From: a virus
Virus genome (UHGV): UHGV-0227898
Reading direction: 5' to 3' (one strand)
Length of the DNA stretch: 35,614 bases
Numbering within the stretch: the first letter of the stretch is position 1; every line of letters starts with the position of its first letter. A program made the translations under genes and the position numbers. Below are positions 4,832-35,593 of the stretch, piece after piece. Under the pieces are notes generated by a model. The model was not told the origin of the DNA. It worked only from the letters and a program-made list of their open reading frames with translations, and did no database searches.

Positions 4832-4847
4832 GGTCGGGATTCCGACC
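4832..4847. repeat. Copy 1 of the perfect 16-bp palindrome GGTCGGGATTCCGACC, 54 bp upstream of the holin start in the divergent region between the accessory cassette and the lysis cassette
   Basis: Exact match to copies at 23368, 33582 and 35515. Conserved 5' flank T-GG. Confidence 0.9.
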
Positions 4848-4901
4848 GCCAGCCCCCCTTACTCTCACGGAACAAAACAAACTTCCCTCTGGGGGTAAGG
4901 T

Positions 4902-5138
4902 ATGAGGATGAACAACCTTTCAGACGCAGCGGCGGGGCTGTCGTACGGCACATCTATTGGCAGCTTTGGTTACTGGCTGCTGCAACTTCTCGATAAAGTG
5001 AGCCCAAGTCAGTGGGCTGCTATTGGGGTACTCGGTAGCCTCTTATTGGGTTTGCTCACCTACCTGACAAATCTCTATTTCAAAATCAAAGATGACCGTC
5101 GAAAAGAGGCTCGGGACAATGGCTACCAGCAAAACTAG
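4902..5138 (+). CDS. Class II holin of the phage 21 S21 pinholin type with dual-start motif (Met1-Arg2-Met3, antiholin/holin)
   Basis: 78 aa. The sequence ...[58 protein letters not shown]... is near-collinear with S21 as I recall it (...[57 protein letters not shown]...). Two TMDs, the first Gly/Ser-rich. MRM start. Confidence 0.85.
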
Positions 5139-5658
5139 GCTCAGCGCTGCTGTTTTGGGGCTGATTCTTGCTGGCGCTTCTGCCCCGCAAATCCTCGATC
5201 AGTTCCTGAATGAGAAAGAGGGTAACAGCCTCACTGCGTACAGAGACGGGGGCGGCATCTGGACAATTTGTCGTGGCGCCACGATGGTTGATGGCAAACC
5301 GGTGGTGCAGGGCATGAAGCTGACGCAGGCGAAATGCGACCGGGTAAATGCTATCGAACGGGATAAGGCTCTGGCCTGGGTTGACCGGAATATAATGGTG
5401 CCGCTGACCGAACCGCAGAAAGCGGGTATTGCTTCGTTCTGCCCGTACAACATCGGCCCCGGTAAATGTTTCCCCTCAACGTTCTATAAGCGTATCAATG
5501 CCGGCGACCGTAAAGGTGCATGCGAGGCGATCCGCTGGTGGATTAAAGACGGTGGCCGCGACTGCCGGCTGACCAAAGGCCAGAAGAATGGCTGTTATGG
5601 TCAGGTTGACCGCCGGGATCAGGAAAGCGCACTAACGTGCTGGGGGATAGACCAGTGA
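5119..5658 (+). CDS. SAR (signal-anchor-release) endolysin, T4-lysozyme-like muramidase of the P21 R21 type
   Basis: Start chosen at ATG 5119 (AAGAGG 10 nt upstream), not 5092. N-terminal Gly/Ala-rich weak [18 protein letters not shown]. Catalytic E-x8-D-x5-T triad in [20 protein letters not shown]. Overlaps the holin 3' end as in the phage 21 cassette. Confidence 0.85.
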
Positions 5659-6017
5659 CCATTAAATCGAAGTTGTTAGCGCTGGCCGTTCTGCTGGCGC
5701 TCTTTGCTGGTACGTATTATGCCGGTTACCTGAAAGGCTGGTATTCACACAGCGACAAAGTAAACAGCGAGCATAAAGCGAAAAACAAAAAGGCTGAGAA
5801 AGCCGTCGCCACTAGTGAGCAGAAAGCGGCAGCGGCCAGCGCAGAAGGCAGGGTGATTTACCGGACCATTTACCGAGACGTGGTGAAATATGTTAACGAC
5901 CCGAATCATATTAAGTGCAATTTTGACGATCACGCTGTGCAGCTGCGCCAACGAGCTCTCGATGCGGCCAACTCCATCAGCGGATTTGATGCAGGAGCCG
6001 TGCAAGGGAGCGAGTAA
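5637..6017 (+). CDS. Rz-like i-spanin (inner-membrane spanin subunit)
   Basis: N-terminal TMD KLLALAVLLALFAGTYYAGY, then a charged, coiled-coil-like periplasmic part. Position directly after the endolysin. Start may be GTG 5655 (GGGGGA SD). Confidence 0.7.
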   Translation: MLGDRPVTIKSKLLALAVLLALFAGTYYAGYLKGWYSHSDKVNSEHKAKNKKAEKAVATSEQKAAAASAEGRVIYRTIYRDVVKYVNDPNHIKCNFDDHAVQLRQRALDAANSISGFDAGAVQGSE

Positions 6018-6132
6018 AGCTGGAACAGACAGCGACGAAGACCTGCAAGCGGACATCGAAACAGCGGAATGCCTGCGCCAGTTACGGCTGGATAAATATC
6101 GTTGGCAAGCTTGGTACAGGGCTACAGAATAG
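5890..6132 (+). CDS. Rz1-like o-spanin lipoprotein, +1 frame, overlapping (not fully embedded in) the Rz gene and extending 115 bp past it
   Basis: Signal peptide plus Cys-containing lipobox-like LTITLCSC, Pro-rich mature part. Frame overlapping Rz. Confidence 0.6.
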   Translation: MLTTRIILSAILTITLCSCANELSMRPTPSADLMQEPCKGASKAGTDSDEDLQADIETAECLRQLRLDKYRWQAWYRATE

Positions 6133-6153
6133 CGAATTTTTATTCACTAACCA

Positions 6154-6163
6154 TTCCGAAGAT
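6154..6163. repeat. Candidate integrase arm-type site TTCCGAAGAT (P arm); same 9-10-mer recurs twice at 6402-6422 (P' arm)
   Basis: Three copies of TCCGAAGAT flanking the tRNA-fragment core. Confidence 0.4.
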
Positions 6164-6276
6164 TGATAGCGAGTTGGTTGTAAGTGTATGTATTTTAGGT
6201 GTTGTAATTTTGCGCTATGTTCGGAAAAAATCCATAATGCATTGATTGTTCTAGTTTTAACAACCAATTTAAAATC

Positions 6277-6322
6277 CCTCGGCGTTCGCGCTGTGTGGGT
6301 TCAAGTCCCACTCCGGGTACCA
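6277..6322 (+). other. 3'-terminal fragment of a tRNA gene (T-arm GTGGG-TTCAAGT-CCCAC, acceptor 3' strand TCCGGGT, discriminator A, CCA): attP/att core carrying the tRNA 3' end
   Basis: Canonical T-stem/loop and ACCA end at 6295-6322. No D-arm or anticodon arm upstream (AT-rich phage DNA), so only the 3' part is present, as in phages that integrate into tRNA genes and rebuild the 3' end. Confidence 0.55.
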
Positions 6323-6363
6323 TGGGAAACAAAGAATAATCAAAGCAATAAGCAGTGTCGTGA

Positions 6364-6387
6364 AACCACCGAAAGGTGGTTTTTTTG
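6364..6387 (+). terminator. Rho-independent terminator (aaccacc-gaaa-ggtggtt-TTTTTTGTT) downstream of the tRNA fragment
   Basis: 7-bp stem, GAAA loop, T6 tract. Expected position of a reconstituted tRNA terminator. Confidence 0.7.
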
Positions 6388-6408
6388 TTATGTACCCATT
6401 TTTCCGAA

Positions 6409-6442
6409 GATGCGTCCGAAGATGATTTTCCCTCGGACGCAT
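6409..6442 (-). promoter_or_regulatory. 10-bp perfect inverted repeat (ATGCGTCCGA ... TCGGACGCAT, 14-nt loop) 7 nt downstream of the int stop codon: sib-like retroregulation/terminator hairpin candidate
   Basis: Seen directly; location relative to int mirrors lambda sib. Confidence 0.4.
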
Positions 6443-6448
6443 AACCAA

Positions 6449-7501
6449 TCAGTTTTTCTGACCGCCAACAACTGGTACCACTTTTACTTTTCTGTCATAA
6501 ATTGCCGTTTGTCGCGAGTTCTTATGGCCGGAAATTGCCTGTTTCTCTTCAAGGCTGCCCTCCAGATCTGAAATGCCTTTTGCTTTCAGATCGTGGAAAG
6601 TGAAATCAATCGACAGGTGAGGGTACTTAGCCTGGGCTGCGAGTTTTGCCTCTCGCCAGCGCGAATTAAAGCCATCTCGGGTGTATTTGCTTCCACTGGG
6701 TTGATGGATAAGAAACAGGCTCCTTATGCCAGGTTTTAGCGGCAGCGCGCGCGCCAGCGAAACCGCTGCACGTAAACGAGGTGTCCATGCCTTGATCTGC
6801 TTCACGCCAGTTTTACCCTGGCGGATAAATATCCCCATGTCGCTGATCTGCTCTTCACTTAAAGACAGGACATCGCTCTGCCTGGCAACGCATAAATAAG
6901 CGATCTCCATTGCTGCACGGACCACATCAGCCCCCACCTCATACACGGCGTTGTATTCTTCATCCGTCACATAGCGCTCTCGTGATACCTCCTTGAACTG
7001 CTTAACCCCCTGACATGGATTTCTTTCCACATATCCACGCTCGTAGCCCCAACGAAATACCCGCGAAAGGAAACTCTTTTCCCTGTTCGCCTGCGTTCGG
7101 CTTGATATGCCGCGCTGATCCATATAGCGCCGGATATGCTCAGGTTTTATTTTGTTGGGGTCAGTTTTACCGAAAACAGGTAACACCTTAACCGAATATT
7201 TCGTGTAATCTTTTCTGGTTTCCGGTGACAAATCCATAAAGTCAGGCGAGGTCATAAACATATCCGCGAGATTCTGGAATGTATTTTTCCTCACTTCTTC
7301 GCCCACAGCTTTTTCATACGCCAGCCAGACCGATGCCTGTGTTTCGTTAAGGGCACACAGGCGAACGGCTTTGTTATCTTTGGTCCGAAATTCATAAGCT
7401 GCTTTGCCGCGATATACACGCGGTGGCATCCAGCTGTCGGCGGGGTTTTTACGCTTTCCGGACATTAAATACGGCTCCGAAATCTGGTTCTTCATCCTCA
7501 C
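6449..7501 (-). CDS. int: Tyrosine site-specific integrase (lambda/P22-like)
   Basis: 350 aa. Arm-binding-like N-terminus, C-terminal catalytic region with R...HxxR...Y-type spacing. Adjacent to att and xis. Alternative start at 7462 (MSGKRKN). Confidence 0.85.
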   Translation of the reverse strand: MRMKNQISEPYLMSGKRKNPADSWMPPRVYRGKAAYEFRTKDNKAVRLCALNETQASVWLAYEKAVGEEVRKNTFQNLADMFMTSPDFMDLSPETRKDYTKYSVKVLPVFGKTDPNKIKPEHIRRYMDQRGISSRTQANREKSFLSRVFRWGYERGYVERNPCQGVKQFKEVSRERYVTDEEYNAVYEVGADVVRAAMEIAYLCVARQSDVLSLSEEQISDMGIFIRQGKTGVKQIKAWTPRLRAAVSLARALPLKPGIRSLFLIHQPSGSKYTRDGFNSRWREAKLAAQAKYPHLSIDFTFHDLKAKGISDLEGSLEEKQAISGHKNSRQTAIYDRKVKVVPVVGGQKN

Positions 7502-7697
7502 GTACCGGGGAGGTTTCCTGGTTGCGGTATTTTATGGGGTTCATGAAATGCCCCCATGTTGTTTTAGGGTGGCCGTCCGCTCTTTCCATAAAGAATATCC
7601 CGGCTCGACGCAGAGCATCACACTGTTTTGATTTAAGTGGCGTCCCCGTCAGTTCTATCATCTCTTCTCTGGTGATGATGTCGTGATCGTGTCTCAT
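7449..7697 (-). CDS. xis: Excisionase / Xis-like small DNA-binding protein
   Basis: 82 aa, overlaps the int 5' end. RBS GAGGAAAGACC-ATG (conserved cassette). Confidence 0.6.
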   Translation of the reverse strand: MRHDHDIITREEMIELTGTPLKSKQCDALRRAGIFFMERADGHPKTTWGHFMNPIKYRNQETSPVREDEEPDFGAVFNVRKA

Positions 7698-7869
7698 GGT
7701 CTTTCCTCAGCATGCGGTATATCGCATCGTCAGCGTCACTACAGGCGCGTTCTATGTCTGACCTGGTCAGGGTCTTCTTTCGTACACTCGCTGATAATTT
7801 TCCGATCTTGGTATCAAAGTCTGAGAGCAGGATTGCTCCGGGTTGCCAGTGCAGCATTGCGGCCTCCAT
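7698..7869 (-). CDS. Hypothetical small early protein
   Basis: GGAGG 8 nt upstream of ATG 7869. Full ORF (7633..7869) overlaps xis in another frame, so the 3' end is uncertain. Confidence 0.35.
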
Positions 7870-7907
7870 TAAGTGTTTGAGGCCACAATGCTATCGGCTT
7901 AAAGGGA

Positions 7908-8090
7908 TTAATTCTGATTACGCTTAATCAGGTTATCTTTCAGAAACGCGCCTTTCTCGCGTGTAACCTTGACGTTCTCCGGAAGATGTAACCCCAACTC
8001 ACTGCGGCTACAAGCTTCGATGATCCCGTTTGTTCCATCAGGAAACACCACGTGTACCGCATCACCTCTTTTGAGAGTCAGTTTCAGCAT
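7908..8090 (-). CDS. Hypothetical 60-aa early protein
   Basis: ORF tightly packed between neighbours, ATG start 2 nt after the upstream stop. Confidence 0.45.
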   Translation of the reverse strand: MLKLTLKRGDAVHVVFPDGTNGIIEACSRSELGLHLPENVKVTREKGAFLKDNLIKRNQN

Positions 8091-8092
8091 GA

Positions 8093-8653
8093 TTAGCGTA
8101 CCTGTAATGAACGTTCGCTGACTTCCAGATGCGCACCCGGTACCGGATTAAGCAACTCTTCCGGTACCTCACCACCATCGGCTTTGATCTGTTCCGCTGC
8201 TGCCTCGGCTGCCTCTATCCTTTCTTTGATGGCCTTCTTGTCAGGGGCGATTACCGTCTGAACTGTGACCACTTCATCAGGCAAGGCGTCAAGGTTATCG
8301 ATCACAACGCTTACTGAACCCTGACGAGCGGTAAAGGTGTTTCTGGGGGTTTTCAGCTTATCCAGTCCAGCACCTAACAAGCATGACAGAATGTACTTGC
8401 GGAGGTGCTTGTCTTTATTTTCGAAAGACTTTTTGCGTTCAGCCAGACGCTTCATTTCTTCGTCACAGGTTTTCGCGTTGCCCAGGTTATTACGCGCCAC
8501 CACCATAACTGCATCCAGGCGATCGGCCAGCTCACCTTCAATCCCTTCCAGGGTGTCGGCGATCATTTCCGGCGTCAACTCGTCAGAGGTTTCCAGCAGG
8601 TTTAACAGGCTGGAGTAATCATTTGCCAATGCGATTGCGGTTACCTTGCTCAT
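8093..8653 (-). CDS. Acidic coiled-coil early protein, possibly Siphovirus-Gp157-like (partner of the annealing protein)
   Basis: 186 aa, very acidic, predicted long helices. Located directly downstream of the Rad52-like gene with 4-bp overlap. Family assignment from memory only. Confidence 0.3.
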   Translation of the reverse strand: MSKVTAIALANDYSSLLNLLETSDELTPEMIADTLEGIEGELADRLDAVMVVARNNLGNAKTCDEEMKRLAERKKSFENKDKHLRKYILSCLLGAGLDKLKTPRNTFTARQGSVSVVIDNLDALPDEVVTVQTVIAPDKKAIKERIEAAEAAAEQIKADGGEVPEELLNPVPGAHLEVSERSLQVR

Positions 8654-10875
8654 GCTGTTTTCTCCTGGGTTTTGTTCAGTTCTTTCAGACGTTCGTCTTT
8701 GATGGTGGTCAGGCGACGCAGGCGTTTACTCAGGTAATTAGCATGCTGGCTGTCGCCTTTAGCCTCAGCATCTTTACGGTGCACCTCCACTTCACGGGCG
8801 ATAGATGCGAATACTTTTGTAACTTCGTTGGCAGAGACACCAGTTGCCAGCGTGTTTGCCACCCGTGTGAGTTTGTCGTCCAGTTCCTGACGCAGACGTG
8901 CAGCATCTTCTGCGTTATCGCTGGCGTTTTTAAGGGCGAATTCTTCTTTATTTTTCTGCCGATATTCAGGGTTGTCATAGAGACCCATAAAGATATCGGC
9001 GCTGAAACCGAGGGAAGAGAGCGCCTTTTTGGTCGCATCGGTAAGTGATTTTTTAGTCGCTTCGCCGTCGCAAATTGGGCCGTGTTTACTCCCGTAGATA
9101 TACTGCGTACAGCCGAAAGAGATCTCTTCTCCGCGTTCACCGTTACGCACATACCAGAGGCGAATCTTAATGACGTGGTGTTTTTCTGTGAGATATCCTC
9201 CGACACCGTTTGGAATAAGTTCCCATGTATTATTCCCGTCCGGTCCTTTTACGATGCGGGTTATTGGTGCGCCATCATCAAAACGCTCCTCAAGGATATC
9301 AACGCCCCAGCCAATACCTTTCGGGCCGAATTCCCGGGTGGCCAGCATCGTCATATATGTGCCGTTGATCGATGTACCGCCACCGTTAACACTAAACTGC
9401 TTGGTAAAACGCTCATCGGTTTTGAAAACGCGTTTCCAGAGAGCAAGGTTTTCCAGTTCTGTGCCGGTGCGTTCGGAGAGGCTCTTTTCAACGTCATTAA
9501 CGTTAGGGCGTGGCTCATCTTGCACCTGATGGGCTTCTGGTTGCTCCGCGACTTTATCTTGATCGCTGCTGTCCAGCTCCTGATTTGATTCACTGGCGTA
9601 AACGCTGTAGCCCATTTTATTGAGCGTTTCACGCGCGGCTTCTGCCTGTGAATCAGTAACCACTTCCACTTTTTCCACCTCATTTGAGGCGTTCTGCGCT
9701 GTGGTCTGAGTTTCTGTTTTTACCCATTTGGGATCGGTAGGGTCACTGATACCGTCAACATACTCGCCACGCCCAGCGGCCAGAGATTTACTGGTTGCTT
9801 CCGAATCATTAGGGCTATGTTCGAACACACCATTTTCGGCAAGCCAACTGTCGATAAAGCGGCGTAATGAATCGGGGAAGTGATGCGTATCTTTCGCTGG
9901 CACATTCTGGATAACGCCAAAAATAGTGTCGCGGGAATATTTGAGGATCTGCTCAGTAGTGCGCAGCGCCATAGACCAGCGCTTAAAGTCTTCCCGGTCT
10001 TCTTCAATGATACGTTCCGCCTGGCGCAGAGCGCTGACAGATACAGTGGTCGCTGGCTCTATTGGCAACAGTGCGAGAGCGATCTCCTGATCCAGAGTGG
10101 CATATGTGTGTTTGTAACCGCGCTGTGGTGCAACCTGAACGTGGGTATTATCTTCCGTGCTGGTGCTGGTGCTGGTGCTGGTGCTGTTCTGAGGCAGCAT
10201 TTCTTCACGTTTGCCCGGGTTGTCAGTCCATTTTTTAATAAACGAGTAAAGCGCGGCGCCGCCGGGTAACTGGTTCTCAAACTTCACATAAATTGCCTGC
10301 AGGAGATTATTAAGCCCCTCCTGGTGCATGTAGTGAACAGGTGGGTGCGCTTCCATCGCATTAATGATGTAACGATTTAAGCGATCATCCTCCTCGTCAC
10401 CGTACTGGCTGGTGTTTTCGAGATTATCAAGATAGTCACAAACCTGAGAATAAATCTCCCCATCCAGCTGGGCGAGGCCAAATAACACCACCGTTGCGAA
10501 GCGTTCGCGCGGCGAAATAGTCATGAAGTCTAATTTTTCATCATTGTCAGGAAGGTGGCTCATCCCGCCAGTTGGTTCGGCGTTTGCCATCCACTTTTCG
10601 CCATCGAACGTATGGGACTTAGCAAAGTGCTCGTCAAACTTGCCGATCTCCGGGTGAGGCTGATCAGCTGTGTTTTCCCATATTTCAGGTTTAAAGAAGT
10701 TATCGCCGTTCGCCGGATAGTGCTCCCAGAGCTTACCCGTCACGATGCTTTCTGCGATTTTTTTGTTGGGTGCTTCCACGCTGATCGCCAACGCAACGGC
10801 ACCATCTTTGATGGCCGATTTTTTCGGCTTAAACAGGCAGTTGTAAACTGAGATTGTCACTTGGTCTTTCCTCAT
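8650..10875 (-). CDS. Large early protein (about 740 aa) whose C-terminal 250 aa is a Rad52/Rad22-family single-strand annealing domain; N-terminal 450 aa of unknown function; contains a (Ser-Thr)5 repeat and a long acidic linker
   Basis: C-terminal segment FSVNGGGTSINGTYMTMLATREFGPKGIGWGVDIL...ISFGCTQY... has the Rad52/22 hallmark (FGP.GxGWG). The true start may be GTG 10860, since ATGAGGAAAGACCAAGTG contains the conserved RBS cassette. Confidence 0.6.
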   Translation of the reverse strand: MRKDQVTISVYNCLFKPKKSAIKDGAVALAISVEAPNKKIAESIVTGKLWEHYPANGDNFFKPEIWENTADQPHPEIGKFDEHFAKSHTFDGEKWMANAEPTGGMSHLPDNDEKLDFMTISPRERFATVVLFGLAQLDGEIYSQVCDYLDNLENTSQYGDEEDDRLNRYIINAMEAHPPVHYMHQEGLNNLLQAIYVKFENQLPGGAALYSFIKKWTDNPGKREEMLPQNSTSTSTSTSTEDNTHVQVAPQRGYKHTYATLDQEIALALLPIEPATTVSVSALRQAERIIEEDREDFKRWSMALRTTEQILKYSRDTIFGVIQNVPAKDTHHFPDSLRRFIDSWLAENGVFEHSPNDSEATSKSLAAGRGEYVDGISDPTDPKWVKTETQTTAQNASNEVEKVEVVTDSQAEAARETLNKMGYSVYASESNQELDSSDQDKVAEQPEAHQVQDEPRPNVNDVEKSLSERTGTELENLALWKRVFKTDERFTKQFSVNGGGTSINGTYMTMLATREFGPKGIGWGVDILEERFDDGAPITRIVKGPDGNNTWELIPNGVGGYLTEKHHVIKIRLWYVRNGERGEEISFGCTQYIYGSKHGPICDGEATKKSLTDATKKALSSLGFSADIFMGLYDNPEYRQKNKEEFALKNASDNAEDAARLRQELDDKLTRVANTLATGVSANEVTKVFASIAREVEVHRKDAEAKGDSQHANYLSKRLRRLTTIKDERLKELNKTQEKTA

Positions 10876-10878
10876 TTG

Positions 10879-11067
10879 TTATGCTGCGTTGGTCTTGCGC
10901 AGCTTGTTACGAAGAGATTCAATTTCTTTCTGCAAATGGCGAACTTGTCGTTGGTGCTGAAAGAACGTTACATATCGACCGTTCTTCTGCTTTTCCATGC
11001 AGTCACCAAACTCACCACGACGATCTCCGACAGTGCATGTGTAACGAACTATTCCCATCTCTTTCAT
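10879..11067 (-). CDS. Hypothetical 62-aa early protein
   Basis: Strong RBS GAGGTGAT-CGA-ATG. Confidence 0.5.
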   Translation of the reverse strand: MKEMGIVRYTCTVGDRRGEFGDCMEKQKNGRYVTFFQHQRQVRHLQKEIESLRNKLRKTNAA

Positions 11068-11076
11068 TCGATCACC

Positions 11077-11400
11077 TCAGAACGGAATATCACTTTCCTG
11101 GATTGTGGAATGGTCGATGCACAGCAGCTGTTGGATCTTGTCTTCGATGAAAGCGACGCGCTGGTGCGCCTGGTCGACAATTGACGCCTTTTCTTTCTGG
11201 AGGCGTTCAACCTGTTTACCGATAATGTCGATCGGTTCCGGCTGGTTTATTTCAAGGCAAACAGTGCGCGTTTCCAGGAGCACGTAAAGATCCGGATAGT
11301 TCTGTGACATGTCACAGGTATGAACCAGATAAAGTGCAGGGACGTGGGGGTTAGCAGATACGTGGATGTACAGTGTTACCTGCAGGGGTAGCGCTTCCAT
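11077..11400 (-). CDS. Hypothetical 107-aa protein, first gene of the leftward early operon
   Basis: RBS TAAGGAGCCGCT-ATG. Follows a roughly 400-nt structured leader. Confidence 0.55.
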   Translation of the reverse strand: MEALPLQVTLYIHVSANPHVPALYLVHTCDMSQNYPDLYVLLETRTVCLEINQPEPIDIIGKQVERLQKEKASIVDQAHQRVAFIEDKIQQLLCIDHSTIQESDIPF

Positions 11401-11433
11401 AGCGGCTCCTTACTGATGTATAATTCGAGCCGA

Positions 11434-11586
11434 TCAGCGGCTCATGTCGTTGGTCTTTCCTCGGTACAGGGTTGGTCCCCTGTACCACCTCCGGGCGGTT
11501 TGGTCACTGTCCCGGGTAAAGAAGCCCACCTCGGTGGGTTTTTTTACGTCTGGCGCCCGTCTTTCCGGACTGTCAGGGCTGGTCAT
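11434..11586 (-). CDS. Possible 50-aa basic leader peptide (MTSPDSPERRAPDVKKPTEVGFFTRDSDQTARRWYRGPTLYRGKTNDMSR) in the pL leader
   Basis: Preceded by the conserved cassette CGAGGAAAGACCAACGGGC-ATG. Arg-rich. Very uncertain. Confidence 0.2.
   Translation of the reverse strand: MTSPDSPERRAPDVKKPTEVGFFTRDSDQTARRWYRGPTLYRGKTNDMSR
11524..11546 (+). terminator. Plus-strand rho-independent terminator (gcccac-ctcg-gtgggt + T7) inside the leftward pL leader, i.e. antisense to it
   Basis: Stem-loop followed by ttttttt on the + strand; on the minus strand it is preceded, not followed, by the A/T run. Confidence 0.6.
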
Positions 11587-11800
11587 GCCCGTTGGTCTTT
11601 CCTCGTATTCATTGCCGTGAAAAAAGTGCCCCTCATGGAGACGAGGCAAAGACTACACACAGCAATTTTGGATTCGTTGCGGTCTTTCCCGCATGTCATC
11701 GTACTGGCGGCGACCCGCGAATTTGGTGCCTGTCTTTCCAGACTGTCAGAACGTTTTTCTGAACAACTGCCGCGTGGTTAGTGCGTCGTTGGTGATGTGA

Positions 11801-11829
11801 ATATTAGATTTGAGCATATTTGAGGTCAA
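11801..11829 (-). promoter_or_regulatory. pL-like sigma70 promoter for the leftward early operon (-35 TTGACC, 17-bp spacer, -10 TAATAT on the minus strand)
   Basis: Read on reverse complement: TTGACC-tcaaatatgctcaaatc-TAATAT. Shares CTAATATTCA with the pR region. Confidence 0.55.
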
Positions 11830-11881
11830 GTGCAAAATACTCGTAAAAATAATATTTTTTATATGTGTATGATAAATAAAT

Positions 11882-11906
11882 AAAAAAAAATCCCGCAGGG
11901 CGGGAT
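11882..11906 (-). terminator. Rho-independent terminator of the cI transcript (ATCCCGC-cct-GCGGGAT followed by T9 on the minus strand)
   Basis: 7-bp perfect stem 20 nt past the cI stop; nine Ts downstream on the transcribed strand. Confidence 0.8.
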
Positions 11907-11925
11907 TCAGGAATTTGGCGGGAGT

Positions 11926-12414: not shown

Positions 12415-12429
12415 CCAATCTCATAACTA

Positions 12430-12459
12430 TTGACAGTTTCATATTCTTAAAACTAATAT
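12430..12459 (+). promoter_or_regulatory. pR-like promoter (-35 TTGACA 12430-12435, 18-bp spacer, -10 TAATAT 12454-12459) with flanking inverted half-sites TGACAG/CTGTCA as candidate operators
   Basis: Consensus hexamers read directly; AGGAGG RBS of cro follows. Confidence 0.65.
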
Positions 12460-14473: not shown

Positions 14474-15858
14474 GTCCTCAGGACCTTGAAGCCTGTGTGC
14501 TGGCTGGCCTGCTGAATGGCGGTGCGACGCCAGACGCATTCGATGTGATCGCCAGCACGCCGGAGGAATCATTCAGCATCGGATTCCATCGCCGCGCTTT
14601 CAGCGAAATAAAAAAACAGGCCCTGGCGAACGGCATGATCGATATGCTTTTCATCAGCGAGGCGCTGGGTGGTTCAAGCCTGGCCGATTTGTCAGATATT
14701 TCCCGCATTCCCGCCACGGTACCAAACCTGAAAGGGTATGCAGGGAAAATGGTCAAAGCATGGCGCAGCCGGGCGCTGGCGAAACTGCTGCAGGATGGGG
14801 CCGACGGCATCCGGCAGGCTGCGAACCAGGAACAACGCGATCAGGTGGTCGAAAACGCCGTCGCGCAGCTGCTGGATATGACTGCTGACACGGGCGACAT
14901 CCAGCCGGTACATATCAACGAGCTTTTGCCTGTTTACATGGATACCGTGCAGAAACGCATGGATGGCGATGAGTCGACCCGCAATTTGCTCACGGGTATT
15001 TCGGATCTCGATAGCGCCACTGGAGGTATTAACCCGCAGGATCTTATCGTCGTTGCTGGCCGCCCGGGCATGGGTAAAACAGAGTTCGCGCTGACCGTGG
15101 TGGAAGGGGTAACAGCCAAAGGAGGCGGCGCGCTGATTTTTAGCATGGAAATGGCGGCCACGCAGATTGTCGAACGGTCCCTGGCTGGTGCCGGAAACCT
15201 GTCCGTATCACGACTGCGAAACCCTCAGGACATGTATGACGAGGACTGGGCGCGCCTGACATCAGCGATGGCCACACTTAACGACCGGGATATCTGGATT
15301 GTAGACGCTACCGATCTCACCGTTGAACAAATCCGCGCGATTGCGGAAACGCACAAACGCCGCCACCCGCATTTAGCGATGATCATGGTCGACTACCTCG
15401 GCTTGATAAAAAAACCAAAGGCGGAGCGTAACGATCTCGCTGTCGCACATATTTCGCGAAACCTCAAAACGATGGCTATGCGCCTGCACACACCTACTTT
15501 CGCGCTGAGCCAGCTCTCCCGTGCCGTTGATGCGCGCCCGGCAACCCAGCGCCGTCCGGTGATGTCAGACCTGCGTGATTCCGGTTCTATTGAGCAGGAC
15601 GCCGACAGCATCCTGTTTCTGTATCGCGACGAGGTTTATGACCCTGAAAGCCCGGCAGCAGGACTGGCCGAAGTCATTCTCGGTAAGTGCCGCTTTGCCG
15701 CAGCCGGTACCGTAGTTTACCAGGAATTCAAGAACGGCCATTTCTTACCAATCGATCAACATGTTGGGAAAGAGAAAACCCGCATTCAACTGGAGGCAGC
15801 CAAACCCAAAAAACAGCAGCGTCGGTATTCCGACAAATACAACACCGAACCGTTTTAA
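14470..15858 (+). CDS. DnaB-family replicative DNA helicase
   Basis: 462 aa. Walker A GRPGMGKTEFAL, DnaB C-terminal domain motifs. GTG start overlapping the initiator stop (GTGA). Confidence 0.85.
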   Translation: MSPQDLEACVLAGLLNGGATPDAFDVIASTPEESFSIGFHRRAFSEIKKQALANGMIDMLFISEALGGSSLADLSDISRIPATVPNLKGYAGKMVKAWRSRALAKLLQDGADGIRQAANQEQRDQVVENAVAQLLDMTADTGDIQPVHINELLPVYMDTVQKRMDGDESTRNLLTGISDLDSATGGINPQDLIVVAGRPGMGKTEFALTVVEGVTAKGGGALIFSMEMAATQIVERSLAGAGNLSVSRLRNPQDMYDEDWARLTSAMATLNDRDIWIVDATDLTVEQIRAIAETHKRRHPHLAMIMVDYLGLIKKPKAERNDLAVAHISRNLKTMAMRLHTPTFALSQLSRAVDARPATQRRPVMSDLRDSGSIEQDADSILFLYRDEVYDPESPAAGLAEVILGKCRFAAAGTVVYQEFKNGHFLPIDQHVGKEKTRIQLEAAKPKKQQRRYSDKYNTEPF

Positions 15859-15899: not shown

Positions 15900-16577
15900 A
15901 TGACCGATTTACTGTATGCGAAAACTATCAGCGAAGACGATGGTTGTGACTGGATCCCTGTGATTATCTGGCGCATGAATGCTGGCGCACGTGCGCGCAG
16001 CTGTTCCTGTTTCGTTCCTACGCCTCGCCCGATCCAGGTAAACCCTGTTTATCGTGTAGCCAAACCCAAAAAAGTTCCAGTGCAGGCCGTTAACACCTCC
16101 GGGCGCTGGCTCAAGACCCACACAGCAACGGTGATTACTGCCAAAGGCGAAAAAACGGTAAAAATTCGCGAAACAGCTACTGTCTGGAGTGCCGGCAGCA
16201 AAGGAAATTACGACAAGCTTACCGGGCAGCGCGTCGGCGCACCGGGCCGTTGCCGCCTCCTGCTGGAGTCGATCACCCCGATTGTACGTAAAGCAAAAGC
16301 GGCACCAGAAAAAGCCTCCGGAGAGCTATCAGCACAAAAGCTGGTGGCGCTGATGAAAGGCAAAACCCTGTCATACCAGGGCATTCTCGCCGCGATCAAA
16401 AAATATCACCCGGACATCAAAATTACTCTTGAGCAACTGCAGAAGCGTATCTGGTTCATGCTGCAGTCAAAGTACGTTGGCATCGAACGTCACGACGATA
16501 TGCCAATTACTCATTTCACGCTGAAAAGCGTAGATCCCCGCTATTACGCTCATTCTGAGAAAAACGTGAGGGCATAA
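15900..16577 (+). CDS. Hypothetical 225-aa protein (nin-like region)
   Basis: Conserved cassette CGAGGAAAGACCA-ATG; no recognisable motifs. Confidence 0.5.
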   Translation: MTDLLYAKTISEDDGCDWIPVIIWRMNAGARARSCSCFVPTPRPIQVNPVYRVAKPKKVPVQAVNTSGRWLKTHTATVITAKGEKTVKIRETATVWSAGSKGNYDKLTGQRVGAPGRCRLLLESITPIVRKAKAAPEKASGELSAQKLVALMKGKTLSYQGILAAIKKYHPDIKITLEQLQKRIWFMLQSKYVGIERHDDMPITHFTLKSVDPRYYAHSEKNVRA

Positions 16578-19271: not shown

Positions 19272-19562
19272 ATGCCGCTGGTTGCCACCTTCAAAACCGA
19301 CTGGTTCCGGGTCATTACCGACCTGACCAGGAAAAACCTCACGACACAGGAAATTGCCAACGAACTGGGCGTTTCGAAATCTGCCGTTCTGGGCTGGAAG
19401 TCAGGATCTGAACCTCGCCACGGTCATGGTGAGGCGCTTATTGCATTGTGGTGCATGGCAACCAGCTCTGACAGAAAAAAATTACCCACGGTTTTACATC
19501 GCCGGTGGTTCACCTTCCGTAAATCGCGTTTTGGTCGGGAAACTGACCAGACATGCAAATAA
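19272..19562 (+). CDS. Small HTH DNA-binding protein at the early/late boundary (candidate late-gene regulator)
   Basis: HTH LTTQEIANELGVSKSAVLGW. RBS GGGGGGTGAACA-ATG. Confidence 0.5.
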   Translation: MPLVATFKTDWFRVITDLTRKNLTTQEIANELGVSKSAVLGWKSGSEPRHGHGEALIALWCMATSSDRKKLPTVLHRRWFTFRKSRFGRETDQTCK

Positions 19563-19598
19563 CAATGACCGCTCACCATTCATCCGGAGATATCCAAA

Positions 19599-23316: not shown

Positions 23317-23337
23317 CTCCTAAACACCATCACCAAA

Positions 23338-23362
23338 AGCCAGCCTGACCAGCTGGCTTTTT
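23338..23362 (+). terminator. Rho-independent terminator agccagc-ctgacca-gctggct-TTTTT
   Basis: 7-bp stem, T5 tail; immediately followed by palindrome copy 2. Confidence 0.7.
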
Positions 23363-23367: not shown

Positions 23368-23383
23368 GGTCGGGATTCCGACC
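23368..23383. repeat. Copy 2 of GGTCGGGATTCCGACC, between a terminator and the major capsid gene
   Basis: Exact 16-mer. Confidence 0.9.
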
Positions 23384-23534
23384 GCACACCTCGCTAACAA
23401 TCTCCTCACAACCAGCCCGGCGGGGACGCCGGATACCTGATTTTTCCAGCAGTGCGTAAGCGCCACCCGCATTGTGCAGATTTGGGCCGGGAAACCGATA
23501 CCCCAGCAGGCGATATTTTCTGGAGTGATTGTTA

Positions 23535-30688: not shown

Positions 30689-33579
30689 TGCCGGTATACG
30701 CCACCCCTGAAGAACTGAATAACGGATTCACTCCGGCGGGCAATGTCCTGGCGGCACCTTCCGGGTTTGATGTCCCTCTGCCTGAAGGTACCAACCCGGC
30801 ACCTCAGCGGGATGAGCCGTCTGTGTGGGGCGCAGCATTTCGCCAGAATAACTTGCTGGGGCAGATGTTCCGCCCGGCTAAGCAGTTCGAGCCGGTAGAC
30901 GGGTACAATCCGTATGTTGATAAAAACGAGCTGCACGGATACGAACAATGGGGATCTGCTTTTGCTGATTCCCGTTCACCGGAAGAAACTGCCTGGCTTA
31001 AACAGCAGATTGACGACGAAAACGAGGACCGTCTGGTGCTTTCAGAGGCGGGCGGGGAGGGTGTCCTGGCCAGTATTGCCGCCGGGGTTGTCGACCCGGT
31101 TACAGTCGCTTCGATGTTTATTCCCGGTGCTCAGGGCGGTACAGTGGCCCGTATCGCGTCACAGGCTGCTATCGGTGCAGCTGCAACAGCAGCGAGCGAG
31201 GTTGCGCTGAACAACCAACAGATCACCCGCACGTGGGGGGAGAGCGCTTCCCACGTCGCAGCCGGTGCGTTGATGAGCGGGGTATTTGCGGCGGCGGGGG
31301 CAGCGCTGACACCCTCTGTTCGCACAGCGGCCACGCGTGAAGTGGCTGATGCGCTCGATAATATGAGTATCACGTCAGCGACGGATACGGCTGCTGCCTC
31401 ACTCCCGGAAGGGGGCAGCGTCGGCGCGGCGCGAATCAGTGAGGCCACGCTCGAGGATCTCACCCCGGCAGCTGGCGGACCGGTCGGTAAACTGGCACGT
31501 AAGGCAGGGAGCTATCTGACACCGTTTACCCGCCTGATGGAGTCACCGTCTAAAACCTCCCGCCGCACCGCGCTTGAGCTGGCAGAGAATAACTACACAC
31601 TGCAGGGCAATGCCCGCGGCATTGAGACACCTATTGCGGCGGAAACCCGTGTTCGCGGGTGGCGTCGTGAAGAAGCTGCTGTCGTGGTGACCAACAAGCA
31701 GGCCTACAGCCAGTATAAAGCCGCCGGGGGCGACCTGAGTTTTTCACAGTTCCGTGAGGAGGTAGGTAACGCCATGCGCAGCGGCGATGTGCATGCAAAC
31801 CCGGTGGTGCAGGAAGCGGCGCAGGCGATGCGCACAGTTATTAACCGGGTGAAGGTGGCGCAGCAAAAGCTTGGCCTGCTGCCGCCTGACGAGGAGCTTA
31901 AAGCCATCGGTCAGGAGAGTTATTTCCCGCGCGTCTACAAAGTCGGCAAGATCGTCAACGAGCGTGATAAGTTCCGCGACATGCTGGTCGACTGGTGGTC
32001 GCGTGGTGAGAAAACCATGTCCCGTGAAGAGGCTGAAATTACTGCTGACGCCACGATCAATAAAATCGTCGGTGCAAAAATTCCGCAGGATTTTGCAAAT
32101 GTCTTTATGGTGAAAGCGGCGGGTAGCACCCGGTCGCGTACGCTCAGCGTTCCCGATCGCCTGATGAAAGATTATCTGGAGAGCGACGCCAACTATGTGC
32201 TGCAGCGTCACATTCGTGAAGCATCGGCAGAGGTTGAGCTGACGCGTGCATTTGGTAACAAATCGCTGGAGAAGCAGCTCAAGGATATTCAGGACGAATA
32301 CGATGCGCTGATGCGCCAGAATCCCAAAGACCAGGCAAAACTGGCGAAAGCCCGCGATAACGATATTCGTGATATCACTGCGCTGCGCGACCGTCTGGCG
32401 GGTACCTACGGCATGCCGGACGATCCATCATCATTTTTCGTACGCGCCGGTGCGTTCCTTCGCAGCGCTAACTTTGTCACCAAGCTGGGCGGTATGACCG
32501 TTTCCGCTATTCCTGATCTCGCGCGTGGTGTGATGGTTAATGGCTTTGGCAATACCATGCGCGGTTACTCTGCGTTGATCACCCGCTCACCGGCATTCAA
32601 GGCAAGCCGCGCCGAGCAGTTAAAAATGGCCGTCGGGCTGGAAACCATCCTTCATACCCGTGCGCGTACGATGGGTGACCTTGTGGACAGTTCCGCCCGT
32701 ACAACGGCAGTGGAAGCGGGTATGGAGCGTGTTACCGATGCGTTCGGCAAGCTCACACTGATGGGCCACTTCGACGATATGAACAAATCGGTGAATGGTA
32801 TGATCACGTCCGACGGCATTCTCTCCGGCTCGTTCGCCGGTCGCCGCCTGGCTAAGCTTGGCATTAACGACAATATGGCCGCGCGTATCCGCAGCGAGTT
32901 CGAAAAACACGGAGAGGTAATCAACGGCTGGCACATCGGTAATTTTGAGAAATGGGACGATCAGCACGTTGCTGGTGTCTTCCAGTCGGCGGTGCTGAAA
33001 GATGTGAACAATACCGTTATCACTCCGGGGATCGGTGATACACCTCTGTGGGCGAGTACGCCGCTGGGTAAAACCATCTTCCAGTTTAAATCCTTCGCTA
33101 CCGCATCCTATAACCGCGCCACGCTGGGCGGCCTGCAGGAGGGAACCGGGCAGTTTTATTACGGTACCGCTTTTCAGATTGGGCTTGGTGCGCTTACGTA
33201 CGCGCTTAAGCAGTCTGCAAACGGCAAGGAGGTAGACTGGTCGCCGCAGAAACTGGTTATTGAAGGTATTGACCGCTCAGGTATTCTCGGCCCGTTAATG
33301 GAATATAACAATATGGCGGAAAAGGCCTCCGGCGGTATGGTGGGGCTGGGGGCATTGCTCGGTACCGGTACACAGTCACGTTATGCCAGTCGCGGTTTTA
33401 TCGGCTCCGCGCTTGGTCCAACGTTCGGTCTGCTCGATACCATTACAGATGTGACAGCTGGTGTACTCAACGGCGATGCCGGTGATCGGGTGCTGCATAA
33501 CGTTCGTACGCTTTTGCCGGGGAATAACCTTTTCTGGATTGCCCCGCTGATAAATCAAGTTGACCCCGGCATGCGGTAA
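30688..33579 (+). CDS. Internal virion / ejection protein (gp16 position), 963 aa
   Basis: Size, position, Ala/Gly-rich mixed-helical composition. Start overlaps the upstream stop (TGAATAATG). Confidence 0.6.
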   Translation: MPVYATPEELNNGFTPAGNVLAAPSGFDVPLPEGTNPAPQRDEPSVWGAAFRQNNLLGQMFRPAKQFEPVDGYNPYVDKNELHGYEQWGSAFADSRSPEETAWLKQQIDDENEDRLVLSEAGGEGVLASIAAGVVDPVTVASMFIPGAQGGTVARIASQAAIGAAATAASEVALNNQQITRTWGESASHVAAGALMSGVFAAAGAALTPSVRTAATREVADALDNMSITSATDTAAASLPEGGSVGAARISEATLEDLTPAAGGPVGKLARKAGSYLTPFTRLMESPSKTSRRTALELAENNYTLQGNARGIETPIAAETRVRGWRREEAAVVVTNKQAYSQYKAAGGDLSFSQFREEVGNAMRSGDVHANPVVQEAAQAMRTVINRVKVAQQKLGLLPPDEELKAIGQESYFPRVYKVGKIVNERDKFRDMLVDWWSRGEKTMSREEAEITADATINKIVGAKIPQDFANVFMVKAAGSTRSRTLSVPDRLMKDYLESDANYVLQRHIREASAEVELTRAFGNKSLEKQLKDIQDEYDALMRQNPKDQAKLAKARDNDIRDITALRDRLAGTYGMPDDPSSFFVRAGAFLRSANFVTKLGGMTVSAIPDLARGVMVNGFGNTMRGYSALITRSPAFKASRAEQLKMAVGLETILHTRARTMGDLVDSSARTTAVEAGMERVTDAFGKLTLMGHFDDMNKSVNGMITSDGILSGSFAGRRLAKLGINDNMAARIRSEFEKHGEVINGWHIGNFEKWDDQHVAGVFQSAVLKDVNNTVITPGIGDTPLWASTPLGKTIFQFKSFATASYNRATLGGLQEGTGQFYYGTAFQIGLGALTYALKQSANGKEVDWSPQKLVIEGIDRSGILGPLMEYNNMAEKASGGMVGLGALLGTGTQSRYASRGFIGSALGPTFGLLDTITDVTAGVLNGDAGDRVLHNVRTLLPGNNLFWIAPLINQVDPGMR

Positions 33580-33581
33580 TC

Positions 33582-33597
33582 GGTCGGGATTCCGACC
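33582..33597. repeat. Copy 3 of GGTCGGGATTCCGACC, 3 nt after the gp16-like stop and upstream of the small terminase
   Basis: Exact 16-mer. Confidence 0.9.
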
Positions 33598-33615
33598 TTA
33601 AACCCGCGCCATCAT

Positions 33616-33644
33616 AGCCCTGTATTCACTACGGGGCTTTTTTT
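33616..33644 (+). terminator. Terminator-like hairpin (agccctgta-ttcac-tacggggct, 9 bp with one G-U) plus T7 tract that runs directly into the terS ATG; sequesters the GGGG SD
   Basis: Seen directly; T-tract 33638-33644, ATG 33645. Confidence 0.55.
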
Positions 33645-33986
33645 ATGCATCAGGATTACAAAACACGCCTTACCGCTCTGAGCGATAAACTCACCGACGT
33701 GGTGCTCGAAGAAGCCGATCCGGATAACTGGCCGGGGGCGGGAAAGAAACCGAGCGAGCTGACCAAAGACGAACGCGGCGACCGCTACTGGGATAAGAAA
33801 AACGCAGCTGCATCGTTGACACTGCTGATTAAGGTGCATTCACTTATCGGCATGCAGACGCGGGGCGGGACACCCTCTGATAACCCTGGTCAGGATGATG
33901 AAGCCTTTGCACTGGGCCAGCAGGTTTCGAAGGCTGAGCGCGAAGCGGCCGCAATTATTGAGCGACTGCAGAAAGGCAAAAAATGA
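33645..33986 (+). CDS. Terminase small subunit (T7 gp18 position)
   Basis: 113 aa, immediately upstream of and overlapping (ATGA) the large terminase. Confidence 0.55.
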   Translation: MHQDYKTRLTALSDKLTDVVLEEADPDNWPGAGKKPSELTKDERGDRYWDKKNAAASLTLLIKVHSLIGMQTRGGTPSDNPGQDDEAFALGQQVSKAEREAAAIIERLQKGKK

Positions 33987-35593
33987 TTTCGTTCCTCGCC
34001 TTCTTTCTGATGTGGGCGGAACGGATGCAGTGGAATGTACCGGACTGTCACTATAAGGCCTGCCACTGGCTGGAGCATCGCGGAAATCTCGCGGTGCTTC
34101 GCTGTTTCCGTGGGTTCGGTAAATCGACGATTCTCGCTGTCTACAATGCCTGGCGGTATTACTGCGACCGTCAGTACCGTATTTTGCACCAGTCTGAATC
34201 TGATGGTACCGCGTATAAAACCAGCCGTGACACCCAGAACGTTCTGCGCAACCATCCGTTGACTAAAGGCATGCTGCCGGACGGGCAGGGGACGGTAGAG
34301 CAGTGGTGGGTTAATGGCGCGCTGGATTTACGTAACGGCAGCATGTACGCCAAAGGCATTCTGTCTAACGTTACCTCCGCCCGCGCAAATGAATGCCAGA
34401 ACGATGACGTAGAGGTACCCCGCAATATCCAGACGCCAGAGGCGCGTGAAAAGCTGCGCTATCGCCTGGGTGAGCAAACTCACATTCTGATCCCAGGCGG
34501 CCGAAAGCTCTACATTGGCACGCCGCACACGCATGACAGCCTTTATGATGAGGTGGAGTCTATGGGCGCTGACTGCCTAACCATCCGGCTGTTTGAGAAA
34601 GAAAAACGCGTTGAAGCGAAAGACGCCACGCAGCTGCACTACGAGTTATCTTTCAGGCCAGAGTACGTTTTCGCGGGCATCCATAAAGCGGCGCGGCTCC
34701 TGGTCGAAGATGTCGATTATAAAATTACGGCCGGCGGCGTTGAGTTTGCATCGGCGCCGGATACTGTTATCGATTTTTATGCAGATTGCGCCTGGCCTGA
34801 GCGATTCACCCGGGAGGAAATGGAGAATCGTCGTAAAGAAACGCGCACCATTAACGAGTGGGATAGTCAGTATCAGCTGCACAGTAAGCCCGTTGGCGAC
34901 GTTCGTCTCGATCCTGACCGTATTCGTGAGTACAACATCCACCCGCAGATCCGCTATGCGAACCGTACGGCTTCGCTCTGGCTGGGTAACGTGCAAATCG
35001 TTGGCGCTGTCGCCTGGTGGGATGTGGCCACAGGTAAAGTTAAGGCTGATGCTTCGGCGTTCTCGCTGATGCTGACGGATGCAAGAGGGCATTTGTACTG
35101 GCACATTTGCCAGGAGCTTACGGGGGAGTTGGCAGAGTTTGACGATAACGACAAAATCACCGGCGGGCAGGTGGCGCAGATCAAAGAGCTGGTGCTCAAA
35201 TATCAGATCCCGGTTGTATGCGTTGAGGTAAATGGCCCCGGCAGCTTCGCAGGTAAATTGCTGCGTCAGGCGCTCAAAGGTACCGGGTGCGGCGTACGTG
35301 AAGAATTCAGCATCACTAACAAGCAAAAGCGCATCCTTGATGCATTTGAAGCGCCGTTGTCGTCACGGTTCCTGTGGGCGCATACCGACGTGCTAGACGG
35401 CCCTGTCTATGATCAGATGCGGGACTTTAACCCGGCGCTGACCAACCAGCCAGATGACTTTATCGACTCAGGCGCTGGCGCTATCAGTCAGACCCCAGTG
35501 CGTATCGGGAAAGTGGTCGGGATTCCGACCGGGCAGTCGCGCGAACATTGGCAGTTAAGTGACGGAGACCATGAGGTCGAAGTCGATTACTAA
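33983..35593 (+). CDS. Terminase large subunit (T7 gp19-like ATPase/nuclease)
   Basis: 536 aa. Walker A-like GFGKST in the N-terminal ATPase; acidic nuclease-type residues in the C-terminal half; terminal gene of the block. Confidence 0.8.
   Translation: MISFLAFFLMWAERMQWNVPDCHYKACHWLEHRGNLAVLRCFRGFGKSTILAVYNAWRYYCDRQYRILHQSESDGTAYKTSRDTQNVLRNHPLTKGMLPDGQGTVEQWWVNGALDLRNGSMYAKGILSNVTSARANECQNDDVEVPRNIQTPEAREKLRYRLGEQTHILIPGGRKLYIGTPHTHDSLYDEVESMGADCLTIRLFEKEKRVEAKDATQLHYELSFRPEYVFAGIHKAARLLVEDVDYKITAGGVEFASAPDTVIDFYADCAWPERFTREEMENRRKETRTINEWDSQYQLHSKPVGDVRLDPDRIREYNIHPQIRYANRTASLWLGNVQIVGAVAWWDVATGKVKADASAFSLMLTDARGHLYWHICQELTGELAEFDDNDKITGGQVAQIKELVLKYQIPVVCVEVNGPGSFAGKLLRQALKGTGCGVREEFSITNKQKRILDAFEAPLSSRFLWAHTDVLDGPVYDQMRDFNPALTNQPDDFIDSGAGAISQTPVRIGKVVGIPTGQSREHWQLSDGDHEVEVDY
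35515..35530. repeat. Copy 4 of GGTCGGGATTCCGACC, inside the terL coding sequence (encoding VVGIPTG) 63 bp before its stop
   Basis: Exact 16-mer. Confidence 0.9.

Follow-up and report, generated by a model that had tools for sequence, protein, structure and literature searches.

A 16-bp dyad element as a candidate operator of late promoters in a temperate podophage genome

A repeated element ahead of late genes

The DNA stretch analyzed here, the virus genome UHGV-0227898 with a length of 35,614 nucleotides (nt; hereafter the window), is a complete temperate phage genome according to the map of its open reading frames (ORFs) and to scans against protein families. The subject of this work is a 16-base-pair (bp) element, GGTCGGGATTCCGACC, which is repeated ahead of late genes, together with a helix-turn-helix (HTH) protein of 96 amino acids (aa) that may act on it. 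The minus strand encodes an integrase, an exonuclease and an O-acetyltransferase moron. The genome also has a DicA-like repressor and a rightward early operon that includes genes for replication and of the nin type, as well as a lysis cassette and a T7-like virion module with portal, scaffold, major head, tail tube proteins, internal proteins, a 113-aa ORF, terL and the tail fibre. The nearest named phages are the Yersinia phages YeP4-6, and related prophages are present in four E. coli genomes. One of these, the prophage of E. coli B379, is integrated at dusA, and its terL is followed by the tail fibre and then by the lysis genes. The group is widespread, with at least 164 IMG/VR stretches encoding the HTH protein and 532 encoding a related terL; besides the E. 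coli prophages and YeP4-6 it includes relatives named from Citrobacter, Klebsiella, Raoultella, Serratia and Pectobacterium.

A search of the whole window located four exact copies of the element, all on the plus strand and at the positions reported in a first-pass annotation of this DNA (4832, 23368, 33582 and 35515). The same annotation had stated that the element occurs nowhere else. This holds for the exact 16-mer, but relaxed searches revealed three degenerate copies, at 19533 (GGTCGGGAAACTGACC), 15820 (CGTCGGTATTCCGACA) and 23483 (GGCCGGGAAACCGATA). With up to three mismatches 10 matches were obtained on both strands, compared with 0.24 expected from shuffled sequences, and chance as the source of the four exact copies is excluded. 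The designation as a perfect palindrome had to be given up, as the 6-bp inverted arms GGTCGG and CCGACC enclose an asymmetric GATT centre and the reverse strand matches with two mismatches. When the four exact copies were aligned, the likeness was limited to 16-17 bases and isolated positions of the flanks. To extend this comparison IMG/VR was scanned with the exact 16-mer, which yielded at least 120 loci, and the counts of conserved bases around the element given below refer to 133 non-identical instances among the matches listed. The common 5' flank had been described as T-N-GG; the bases that are in fact common are an A at -4 before the element (4/4 exact copies and 121 of the 133 relatives) and a T at -1 (3/4 exact copies).

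The genes around the four exact copies were checked with PHROGs and agree with the contexts claimed before (Table 1). Copy 1 ends 54 bp before the ATG of the holin gene. Copy 2 is followed by the capsid gene, whose start is probably the ATG at 23534 with GGAG upstream rather than the GTG at 23474, as judged from the 303-aa annotation in B379 and the PHROG match. Copy 3 begins 2 nt past the stop codon of the 963-aa gp16-like ORF and precedes the 113-aa ORF in front of terL. Copy 4 is located within the last 79 nt of terL. That the tail fibre follows it had been suggested for the case of circular closure, and this order is indeed seen in the integrated B379 prophage. The degenerate copy at 19533 lies ahead of the first late ORF and is, by its sequence context, a fifth copy of the promoter type; at this site B379 and at least seven IMG/VR loci have the exact 16-mer.

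In the B379 prophage the element is present at all five of these places, and about 15 kb of flanking host DNA is free of it. Four of the places are occupied in YeP4 by the variant T(A/G)GTCGGGAAACCGAAC. At the place of copy 1 the variants GGTCAGGATTCCGACC (before the YeP4 holin) and AGTCAGGATTCCGACC (B379) were found. Degenerate copies of these two types are frequent in front of lysis genes (locus L322 at 36263, locus L121 at 1915 and many other IMG/VR loci), and the copies at capsid and terL stay exact; the lysis promoter may accordingly be weaker or act later.

Table 1. Predicted promoter elements, terminators and the candidate regulator gene in the window, with the number of IMG/VR instances in the same gene context.
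Feature	Position	Strand	Remarks	IMG/VR instances
Operator copy 1	4832..4847	+	Ahead of the lysis genes (holin at 4902, endolysin and spanins); predicted promoter of this cassette	At least 21 before lysis genes (holin 19, endolysin 2)
-10-like hexamer of copy 1, TACTCT	4860-4865	+	Predicted start A4874	
Strong terminator-like hairpin and T-run	6362..6383	+	Downstream of the lysis cassette	
HTH gene, 96 aa	19272..19562	+	Candidate late activator; last gene of the rightward early operon, late genes directly downstream	
Fifth, degenerate operator copy, GGTCGGGAAACTGACC	19533..19548	+	First late unit: 159-aa ORF, 76-aa ORF, portal, scaffold	At least 7 before the first late ORF
-10-like hexamer of the 19533 copy, AACAAT	19561-19566	+	Predicted start A19575	
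Intrinsic terminator	23335..23361	+	Ends the portal-scaffold unit; -14.2 kcal/mol, z -4.7	
Operator copy 2	23368..23383	+	Precedes the major head gene; predicted promoter of the capsid-to-gp16 unit	At least 55 before the capsid gene
-10-like hexamer of copy 2, AACAAT	23396-23401	+	Predicted start A23410	
Operator copy 3	33582..33597	+	Predicted promoter of the unit of 113-aa ORF and terL	At least 23 before the 113-aa ORF
-10-like hexamer of copy 3, CATCAT	33610-33615	+	Predicted start A33624	
Terminator (hairpin 33616-33638 and T-run)	33616..33644	+	-13.7 kcal/mol, z -5.1	
Operator copy 4	35515..35530	+	Inside the terL 3' end; predicted promoter of the tail fibre gene (position 1 once circular)	At least 37 inside terL, before the tail fibre
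-10-like hexamer of copy 4, GAACAT	35543-35548	+	Predicted start A35557	

Promoter-like architecture and conservation of the element

In all five promoter-type copies of the window a hexamer of the form NANNNT is located exactly 12 nt downstream of the element, and the same spacing was found in YeP4. The A of this hexamer (position 30, counted from the first base of the element) is present in 127 and the T (position 34) in 126 of the 133 relatives, a further A at position 33 occurs in 99, and the neighbouring positions are nearly uninformative. The most important bases of the -10 hexamer of sigma-70 promoters are the A at -11 and the T at -7, and by their position the two conserved bases correspond to these in the predicted promoters. 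In addition a pyrimidine-A dinucleotide occupies positions 42-43 in 5/5 copies of the window, with 8 nt between the hexamer and the A; in the relatives position 42 is a pyrimidine in 117/133 and position 43 an A in 92/133 instances. Pyrimidine-A is a typical start dinucleotide, and with the predicted start at position 41-43 the element would span about -42 to -25. Each of the five positional classes has a hexamer of its own at unchanged spacing, and this was also the case in loci that had been fetched by means of the HTH protein instead of the motif.

A -35 hexamer could not be detected at the element: at spacers of 16 or 17 bp (GGATTC at 17) none of the bases matches TTGACA, and at 18 bp two of six do (GGGATT). 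Likewise, a scan for consensus sigma-70 promoters yielded none at any of the element sites, and none of the copies of the window has the TG of an extended -10. The consensus sequences of sigma-54 (TGGCAC-N5-TTGC) and sigma-28 promoters were compared by eye and did not fit. In place of a -35 there are the two arms of the element, which are kept across relatives and enclose two variable central bases (TT, AA, AT or AC). The arm centres are 10 bp apart, corresponding to one helical turn. This pattern of constant arms and a variable centre fits a dimer that would read two half-sites.

A strictly conserved sequence of one orientation, in a genome whose structural module and placement of the copies resemble T7-like phages, could also be the promoter of a dedicated polymerase or of a phage sigma factor in the manner of T7, N4 or phiEco32. 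We consider this highly improbable. A gene for a phage RNA polymerase, single-subunit or other, is missing from the ORF list, and the sole ORF of the early region with more than 700 aa (741 aa) is an exonuclease (phrog_2489). A phage sigma factor was not present among the ORFs scanned; the HTH protein gave a match to Sigma70_r4 below threshold (16 bits, with a cut-off of 24), is too small and has an XRE fold. Furthermore, the conserved A and T fit the key bases of the sigma-70 -10. Of the analogy to T7 that had been drawn for this genome the positional placement of the elements is therefore retained and the phage polymerase is not.

Evidence that the nucleotide sequence itself is conserved was obtained from copy 4, which overlaps a coding region. 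For this analysis 80 loci were chosen by similarity of the terL protein, not by the motif, and these comprised 59 non-identical 3' ends. At the four 4-fold-degenerate codons inside the element the entropy of the third position is zero. The 105 other 4-fold-degenerate codons within the last 300 codons of terL have a mean of 1.25 bits, and none of them is at or below 0.05. The synonymous constraint that had been proposed for this copy was thus borne out, and the result indicates that selection acts on the DNA sequence of the terL copy. The T of the -10-like hexamer of copy 4 is the third base of a His/Asp/Asn codon and was invariant in the set selected by the motif. In YeP4 it is the terL residues that follow the motif variant, with exchanges of I to K and T to N.

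The element could also act as RNA, that is as a hairpin in read-through late transcripts which serves as a processing or stabilising site like the RNase III sites of T7. The first-pass annotation had listed such a nuclease site as a possibility, and it is now disfavoured; we regard it as very unlikely. The transcript would form a 6-bp stem with a GAUU loop (-11 kcal/mol), the copies are located at unit boundaries, and in a few variants, such as GGTCAGGATTCTGACC, the two arms are altered symmetrically. However, the pairing is broken without compensation in at least 22 contexts, by the most frequent variants AGTCAGGATTCCGACC (12 contexts) and GGTCAGGATTCCGACC (10), and also in YeP4, by AGTCGGGAAACCGAAC. 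Substrates of RNase III have double-stranded stems of roughly 20 bp, far longer than 6 bp. Moreover, neither the A..T hexamer with its constant spacing nor the conservation of the 5' flank would have a role in such a model, and copy 2 follows a strong terminator, so that little read-through RNA should contain it. A search of the window against Rfam at gathering thresholds produced no hit.

Finally, we considered that the element could be a host repeat similar to repetitive extragenic palindromic (REP) sequences, or a short linker that promotes recombination between phage modules. The location of the copies at module boundaries and the identical 16-mer in phages with unrelated early regions are in line with this idea, which is nevertheless the least probable of those discussed here. 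In addition to its absence from the host flank of the B379 prophage, the 16-mer occurred at about the chance rate (roughly 280 matches expected) in a scan of 596 Gb of genomes: among the matches listed, at least 120, most were singletons from unrelated phyla, with no enterobacterial excess. The fixed spacing to the -10, the use of one orientation and the invariance of synonymous sites in terL point to a sequence that is read and not to a passive linker.

Late units, terminators and the HTH protein

The predicted promoters are combined with terminators (Table 1). The T-run of the terminator at 23335-23361 is at the same time the A/T-rich upstream flank of copy 2, and the hairpin and T-run before copy 2 are kept in the consensus of the capsid class. 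The terminator at 33616-33644 is located between the -10-like hexamer of copy 3 and the ATG at 33645. Its hairpin is kept within the positional class of the 113-aa ORF, and in B379 a U.G pair of the stem is changed to U-A. The start predicted for copy 3, A33624, is the final base of the 5' arm of this hairpin; transcripts from copy 3 would consequently lack the hairpin, and those reading through from gp16 would be stopped by it. Downstream of the capsid gene there is a weaker hairpin. The hairpin at 6362-6383 is likely the end of late transcription. It separates the lysis cassette from the 3' end of the integrase gene and falls within a 127-aa ORF (6188-6571) that overlaps the integrase; this ORF is probably not a gene, and the region is likely attP. 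As the late units are bounded by terminators, each unit needs a promoter of its own, which would explain the presence of five copies.

The same terminators are compatible with a processive antiterminator, for which the element would be the loading site, either on DNA as for Q or as RNA in a put-like manner. The HTH gene occupies the position of Q, the strong terminator directly after copy 3 is reminiscent of the arrangement of PR' and tR', and terminators are found between the late units. We consider this alternative, which had also been suggested before, to be quite unlikely, as the defining features of a Q-type system are missing. Scans of ten early and late-proximal ORFs gave no protein of the Q family. 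The binding elements of Q are flanked by a good -35 and a good -10, and here the -35 is lacking. For a processive mechanism one site would be enough, in contrast to the five separate sites and their individual -10 hexamers. The predicted start of copy 3 is overlapped by the terminator that follows, leaving transcripts without its 5' arm, and provided that the starts are predicted correctly, transcripts from a given promoter would not include its element, contrary to a put-like RNA.

The gene for the HTH protein stands out in a comparison of all proteins of the window with those of YeP4. Common to both are the late proteins, the endolysin and the HTH protein (47% identity), and the early regions are unrelated, so that the HTH gene is the only non-late gene shared. 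In the B379 prophage, which has an early region of the YeP4 type, a homologue is located just before the first copy of the element. We also fetched 80 IMG/VR loci via the HTH protein, taken from 164 confirmed stretches. The element directly followed the HTH gene in 79 of these 80 loci (co-occurrence), and where the loci were long enough a second copy was present 3.5-5 kb downstream, before the capsid gene. In the window the 3' tail of the HTH ORF even holds the fifth copy: the tail residues FGRETDQ are the translated element, and the stop codon overlaps the -10-like hexamer. Homologues with 84-88 aa stop before the element, and the C-terminal tail encoded in the window is, from this comparison, probably incidental.

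The HTH protein has no match above threshold in Pfam or NCBIfam, the annotation of its relatives is "hypothetical", and comparisons with the PDB, with the single sequence as well as with a profile, returned non-significant hits only. The predicted structure is helical with a lambda-repressor-like XRE/Cro-C1 fold and the HTH in helices 2-3. The best fold matches were the controller proteins C.EcoT38IS, C.Kpn2I and C.AhdI, and P22 c2 was also among them. The most conserved residues are located in the recognition helix: V34, K36, G41, W42 and K43 (invariant). Two relatives with 30-40% identity (L055 and L065) have K-S in the recognition helix together with the exact 16-mer and a proper hexamer. 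The homologues of BcepC6B (gp01, 34% identity) and of the Acinetobacter phage TPWB-05 have a changed recognition helix, and these phages are without the element. When the genomes of BcepC6B and TPWB-05 were searched de novo for another repeated element, compositional noise was all that emerged, so that the co-variation seen between protein and operator is confined to presence or absence of the element. In BcepC6B (L403) we noticed a symmetric variant with both arms changed alike, GGCCGGGATTCCGGCC, at 5751-5766 inside gp07; it is located about 385 bp before the major head gene and has no -10-like hexamer at the usual spacing.

A protein of this fold could act in the opposite sense. With the element as operator of a repressor, the HTH protein or another factor would cover the -35 region and keep the late promoters silent, and these would fire unaided after it leaves. 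This is the most serious rival explanation and, in our estimate, an unlikely one. XRE-fold proteins are mostly repressors, PHROG 16553 and the RefSeq entry of BcepC6B gp01 carry the label "transcriptional repressor", and a dimer near -33 would compete sterically with region 4 of sigma. On the other hand, promoters without a -35 and with a minimal -10 should have very low activity unaided. The HTH gene belongs not to the lysogeny genes but to an early lytic operon that is kept off by the prophage repressor, so that the protein would be absent in the lysogen, and it would appear just before the late genes must be turned on.

Some further sites resemble the element or adjoin it. The copy at 15820-15835 has kept the core GTCGG-N4-CCGA and lies in the last codons of the DnaB-like gene, 65 nt before an ORF at 15900. 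AACCGT, with A at position 2 and T at position 6, is located 12 nt further on, and relatives that share this early module have kept the copy. Either it is a weak sixth site, or its presence may be a coincidence maintained by the coding sequence. The copy at 23483-23498 belongs to the capsid leader, about 115 nt past copy 2, and many relatives have GGCCGGGAAACCGACA at the matching offset. It could be a second operator, the remnant of a duplicated promoter or part of a tandem, weaker promoter near the capsid ATG. Next to copy 1 there is a minus-strand moron cassette of low GC content (0.39; 2800-4820) with the O-acetyltransferase gene (2800-3876) and a 272-aa ORF without family (3935-4753). The sigma-70-like promoter of this cassette, TTGCGA-16-TATGAT (4820-4793), is about 12 bp from copy 1 and points in the opposite direction, and binding at copy 1 might also influence it. 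On an unrelated-looking IMG/VR contig (L007, 5397-5523; L068) an exact copy is followed by the hexamer GACACT, a good ribosome-binding site and an unidentified gene, and a second, degenerate copy in opposite orientation is located 110 bp upstream. The element may drive cargo genes too.

A proposed late regulon and known systems

Taken together, we think it probable that the host sigma-70 RNA polymerase uses five late promoters which depend on an activator, with the 16-bp element as their operator and the HTH protein as the candidate activator. Such a cis-element for late activation, served by a dimeric phage protein with the product of 19272-19562 as candidate, had been the leading proposal of the first-pass annotation. 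The -10-like hexamer at a fixed distance of 12 bp, the five conserved positions and the linkage to the HTH gene argue for it. Each promoter would consist of GGTCGGGAWWCCGACC, preferably preceded by A at -4 and T at -1, then a spacer of 12 bp, a weak NANNNT hexamer and a pyrimidine-A start 8 nt further on, and the element at about -42 to -25 would replace the missing -35 hexamer. The HTH protein would be made from the early rightward operon, at the position that Q has in lambda. It would most likely bind as a dimer to the two arms and then recruit or stabilise RNA polymerase. In this way five late units would be expressed: portal-scaffold, capsid-to-gp16, small ORF-terL, tail fibre and lysis.

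Several points weigh against this interpretation. Symmetric class II activators are typically located at -41.5, and a dimer near -33, which would take the place of sigma region 4, is unusual among them; precedents for such a footprint are lambda CII at -41 to -26 and the pho box of PhoB. Recognition of the element does not appear to be fully symmetric, since G7 and A8 are invariant while their mirror positions vary. Many of the instances compared share ancestry within their positional class, and the counts given above do not represent independent events. The structure model of the HTH protein is of moderate confidence (predicted local distance difference test, pLDDT, 72), and the co-variation of recognition helix and operator rests on very few lineages. 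The label "transcriptional repressor" for the family also speaks against an activator, although it was apparently assigned without a test.

As a tentative extension, which we regard as doubtful, the HTH dimer near -33 could be, instead of a conventional class II activator, a surrogate for the contact between sigma region 4 and a -35, that is an upstream anchor for the polymerase. The protein, the 16-bp site and any NANNNT would then form a self-contained, portable late regulon that moves with the T7-like virion module between unrelated early regions and is insulated by terminator-promoter cassettes, including the start inside the terminator hairpin at 33616-33638. The main proposal, of activator-dependent late promoters, would explain how a T7-like virion module is run without a phage RNA polymerase in widespread temperate podophages of Enterobacterales. 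It gives a testable function to a protein family now labelled hypothetical or "repressor" and provides a simple sequence rule for the annotation of late units and start sites in these prophages. The pair of 96-aa protein and 16-bp operator, which persists at protein identities as low as 30%, would also be a compact candidate part for orthogonal gene control.

A literature search with the 16-mer and four variants on either strand gave two irrelevant hits and no paper mentioning the element, and in the literature on YeP4 and on BPP-1/Xfas53 no account of late promoters was found. We found no publication of this regulator-operator pair, and the regulator family is uncharacterised. Related arrangements are, however, known from other phages. 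The four late promoters of Mu have a recognisable -10 and no -35, and C, a small phage HTH activator working with host RNA polymerase, binds a 16-bp imperfect dyad that overlaps the -35 region and is centred at -43.5 (PMC2582627). The Mu system is similar in its several late promoters with a -10, without a -35 and with a 16-bp dyad over the -35 region. It differs from the present one in that C belongs to the Mor/C family, to which the HTH protein with its XRE/Cro fold has no detectable similarity, in that the site here is about 10 bp closer, near -33, and in its unrelated sequence. Homology of the HTH protein to Mor/C was not indicated, as there was no Pfam hit and the fold searches returned only XRE-type proteins.

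The 97-aa HTH activator CII of lambda binds at about -41 to -26, across the -35 region, of promoters with a poor -35 and -10. This footprint (PRE, PI and PaQ; C1 in P22) is nearly the same as the one predicted here. CII, however, recognizes direct repeats, TTGC-N6-TTGC, as a tetramer and serves lysogeny promoters rather than late genes. Homology of the HTH protein to CII is not supported: the weak likeness is confined to the HTH (30 columns, 33% identity), with an hhalign probability of 24% and an E value of 0.5-0.7 in a profile search against the CII chains of the PDB.

Structurally nearest are the controller proteins of restriction-modification systems (C.EcoT38IS, C.Kpn2I, C.AhdI, C.Esp1396I and C.BclI; identity 10-19%). 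These are linked to restriction-modification genes and autoregulate a single operon via two adjacent operators, in contrast to the five dispersed single sites of the window. Restriction-modification genes are absent from the flanks of the HTH gene, and there is no element upstream of it.

With regard to the organization of late transcription, Ogr of P2, delta of P4 and B of 186 control four late operons with activator-dependent promoters that contain a conserved dyad. The promoters proposed here are of the same kind, but those activators are zinc-finger proteins and their dyad, TGT-N12-ACA, is centred near -55. Lambda Q corresponds in its genetic position, since like the HTH gene it ends the early rightward operon and has the late genes directly downstream; the single late promoter of lambda, the site between a canonical -35 and -10 and the pause site have no counterpart in the window. 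The order of the virion genes and the conserved elements before the capsid and tail fibre genes are shared with T7. A T7 promoter runs through +1, whereas here conservation of the block stops about 25 nt short of the predicted start; a phage RNA polymerase gene is missing, and the stem is too short for RNase III. Activator-dependent late promoters are thus a known kind of system, and what would be new in this phage group is their control by a regulator family that is uncharacterised so far.

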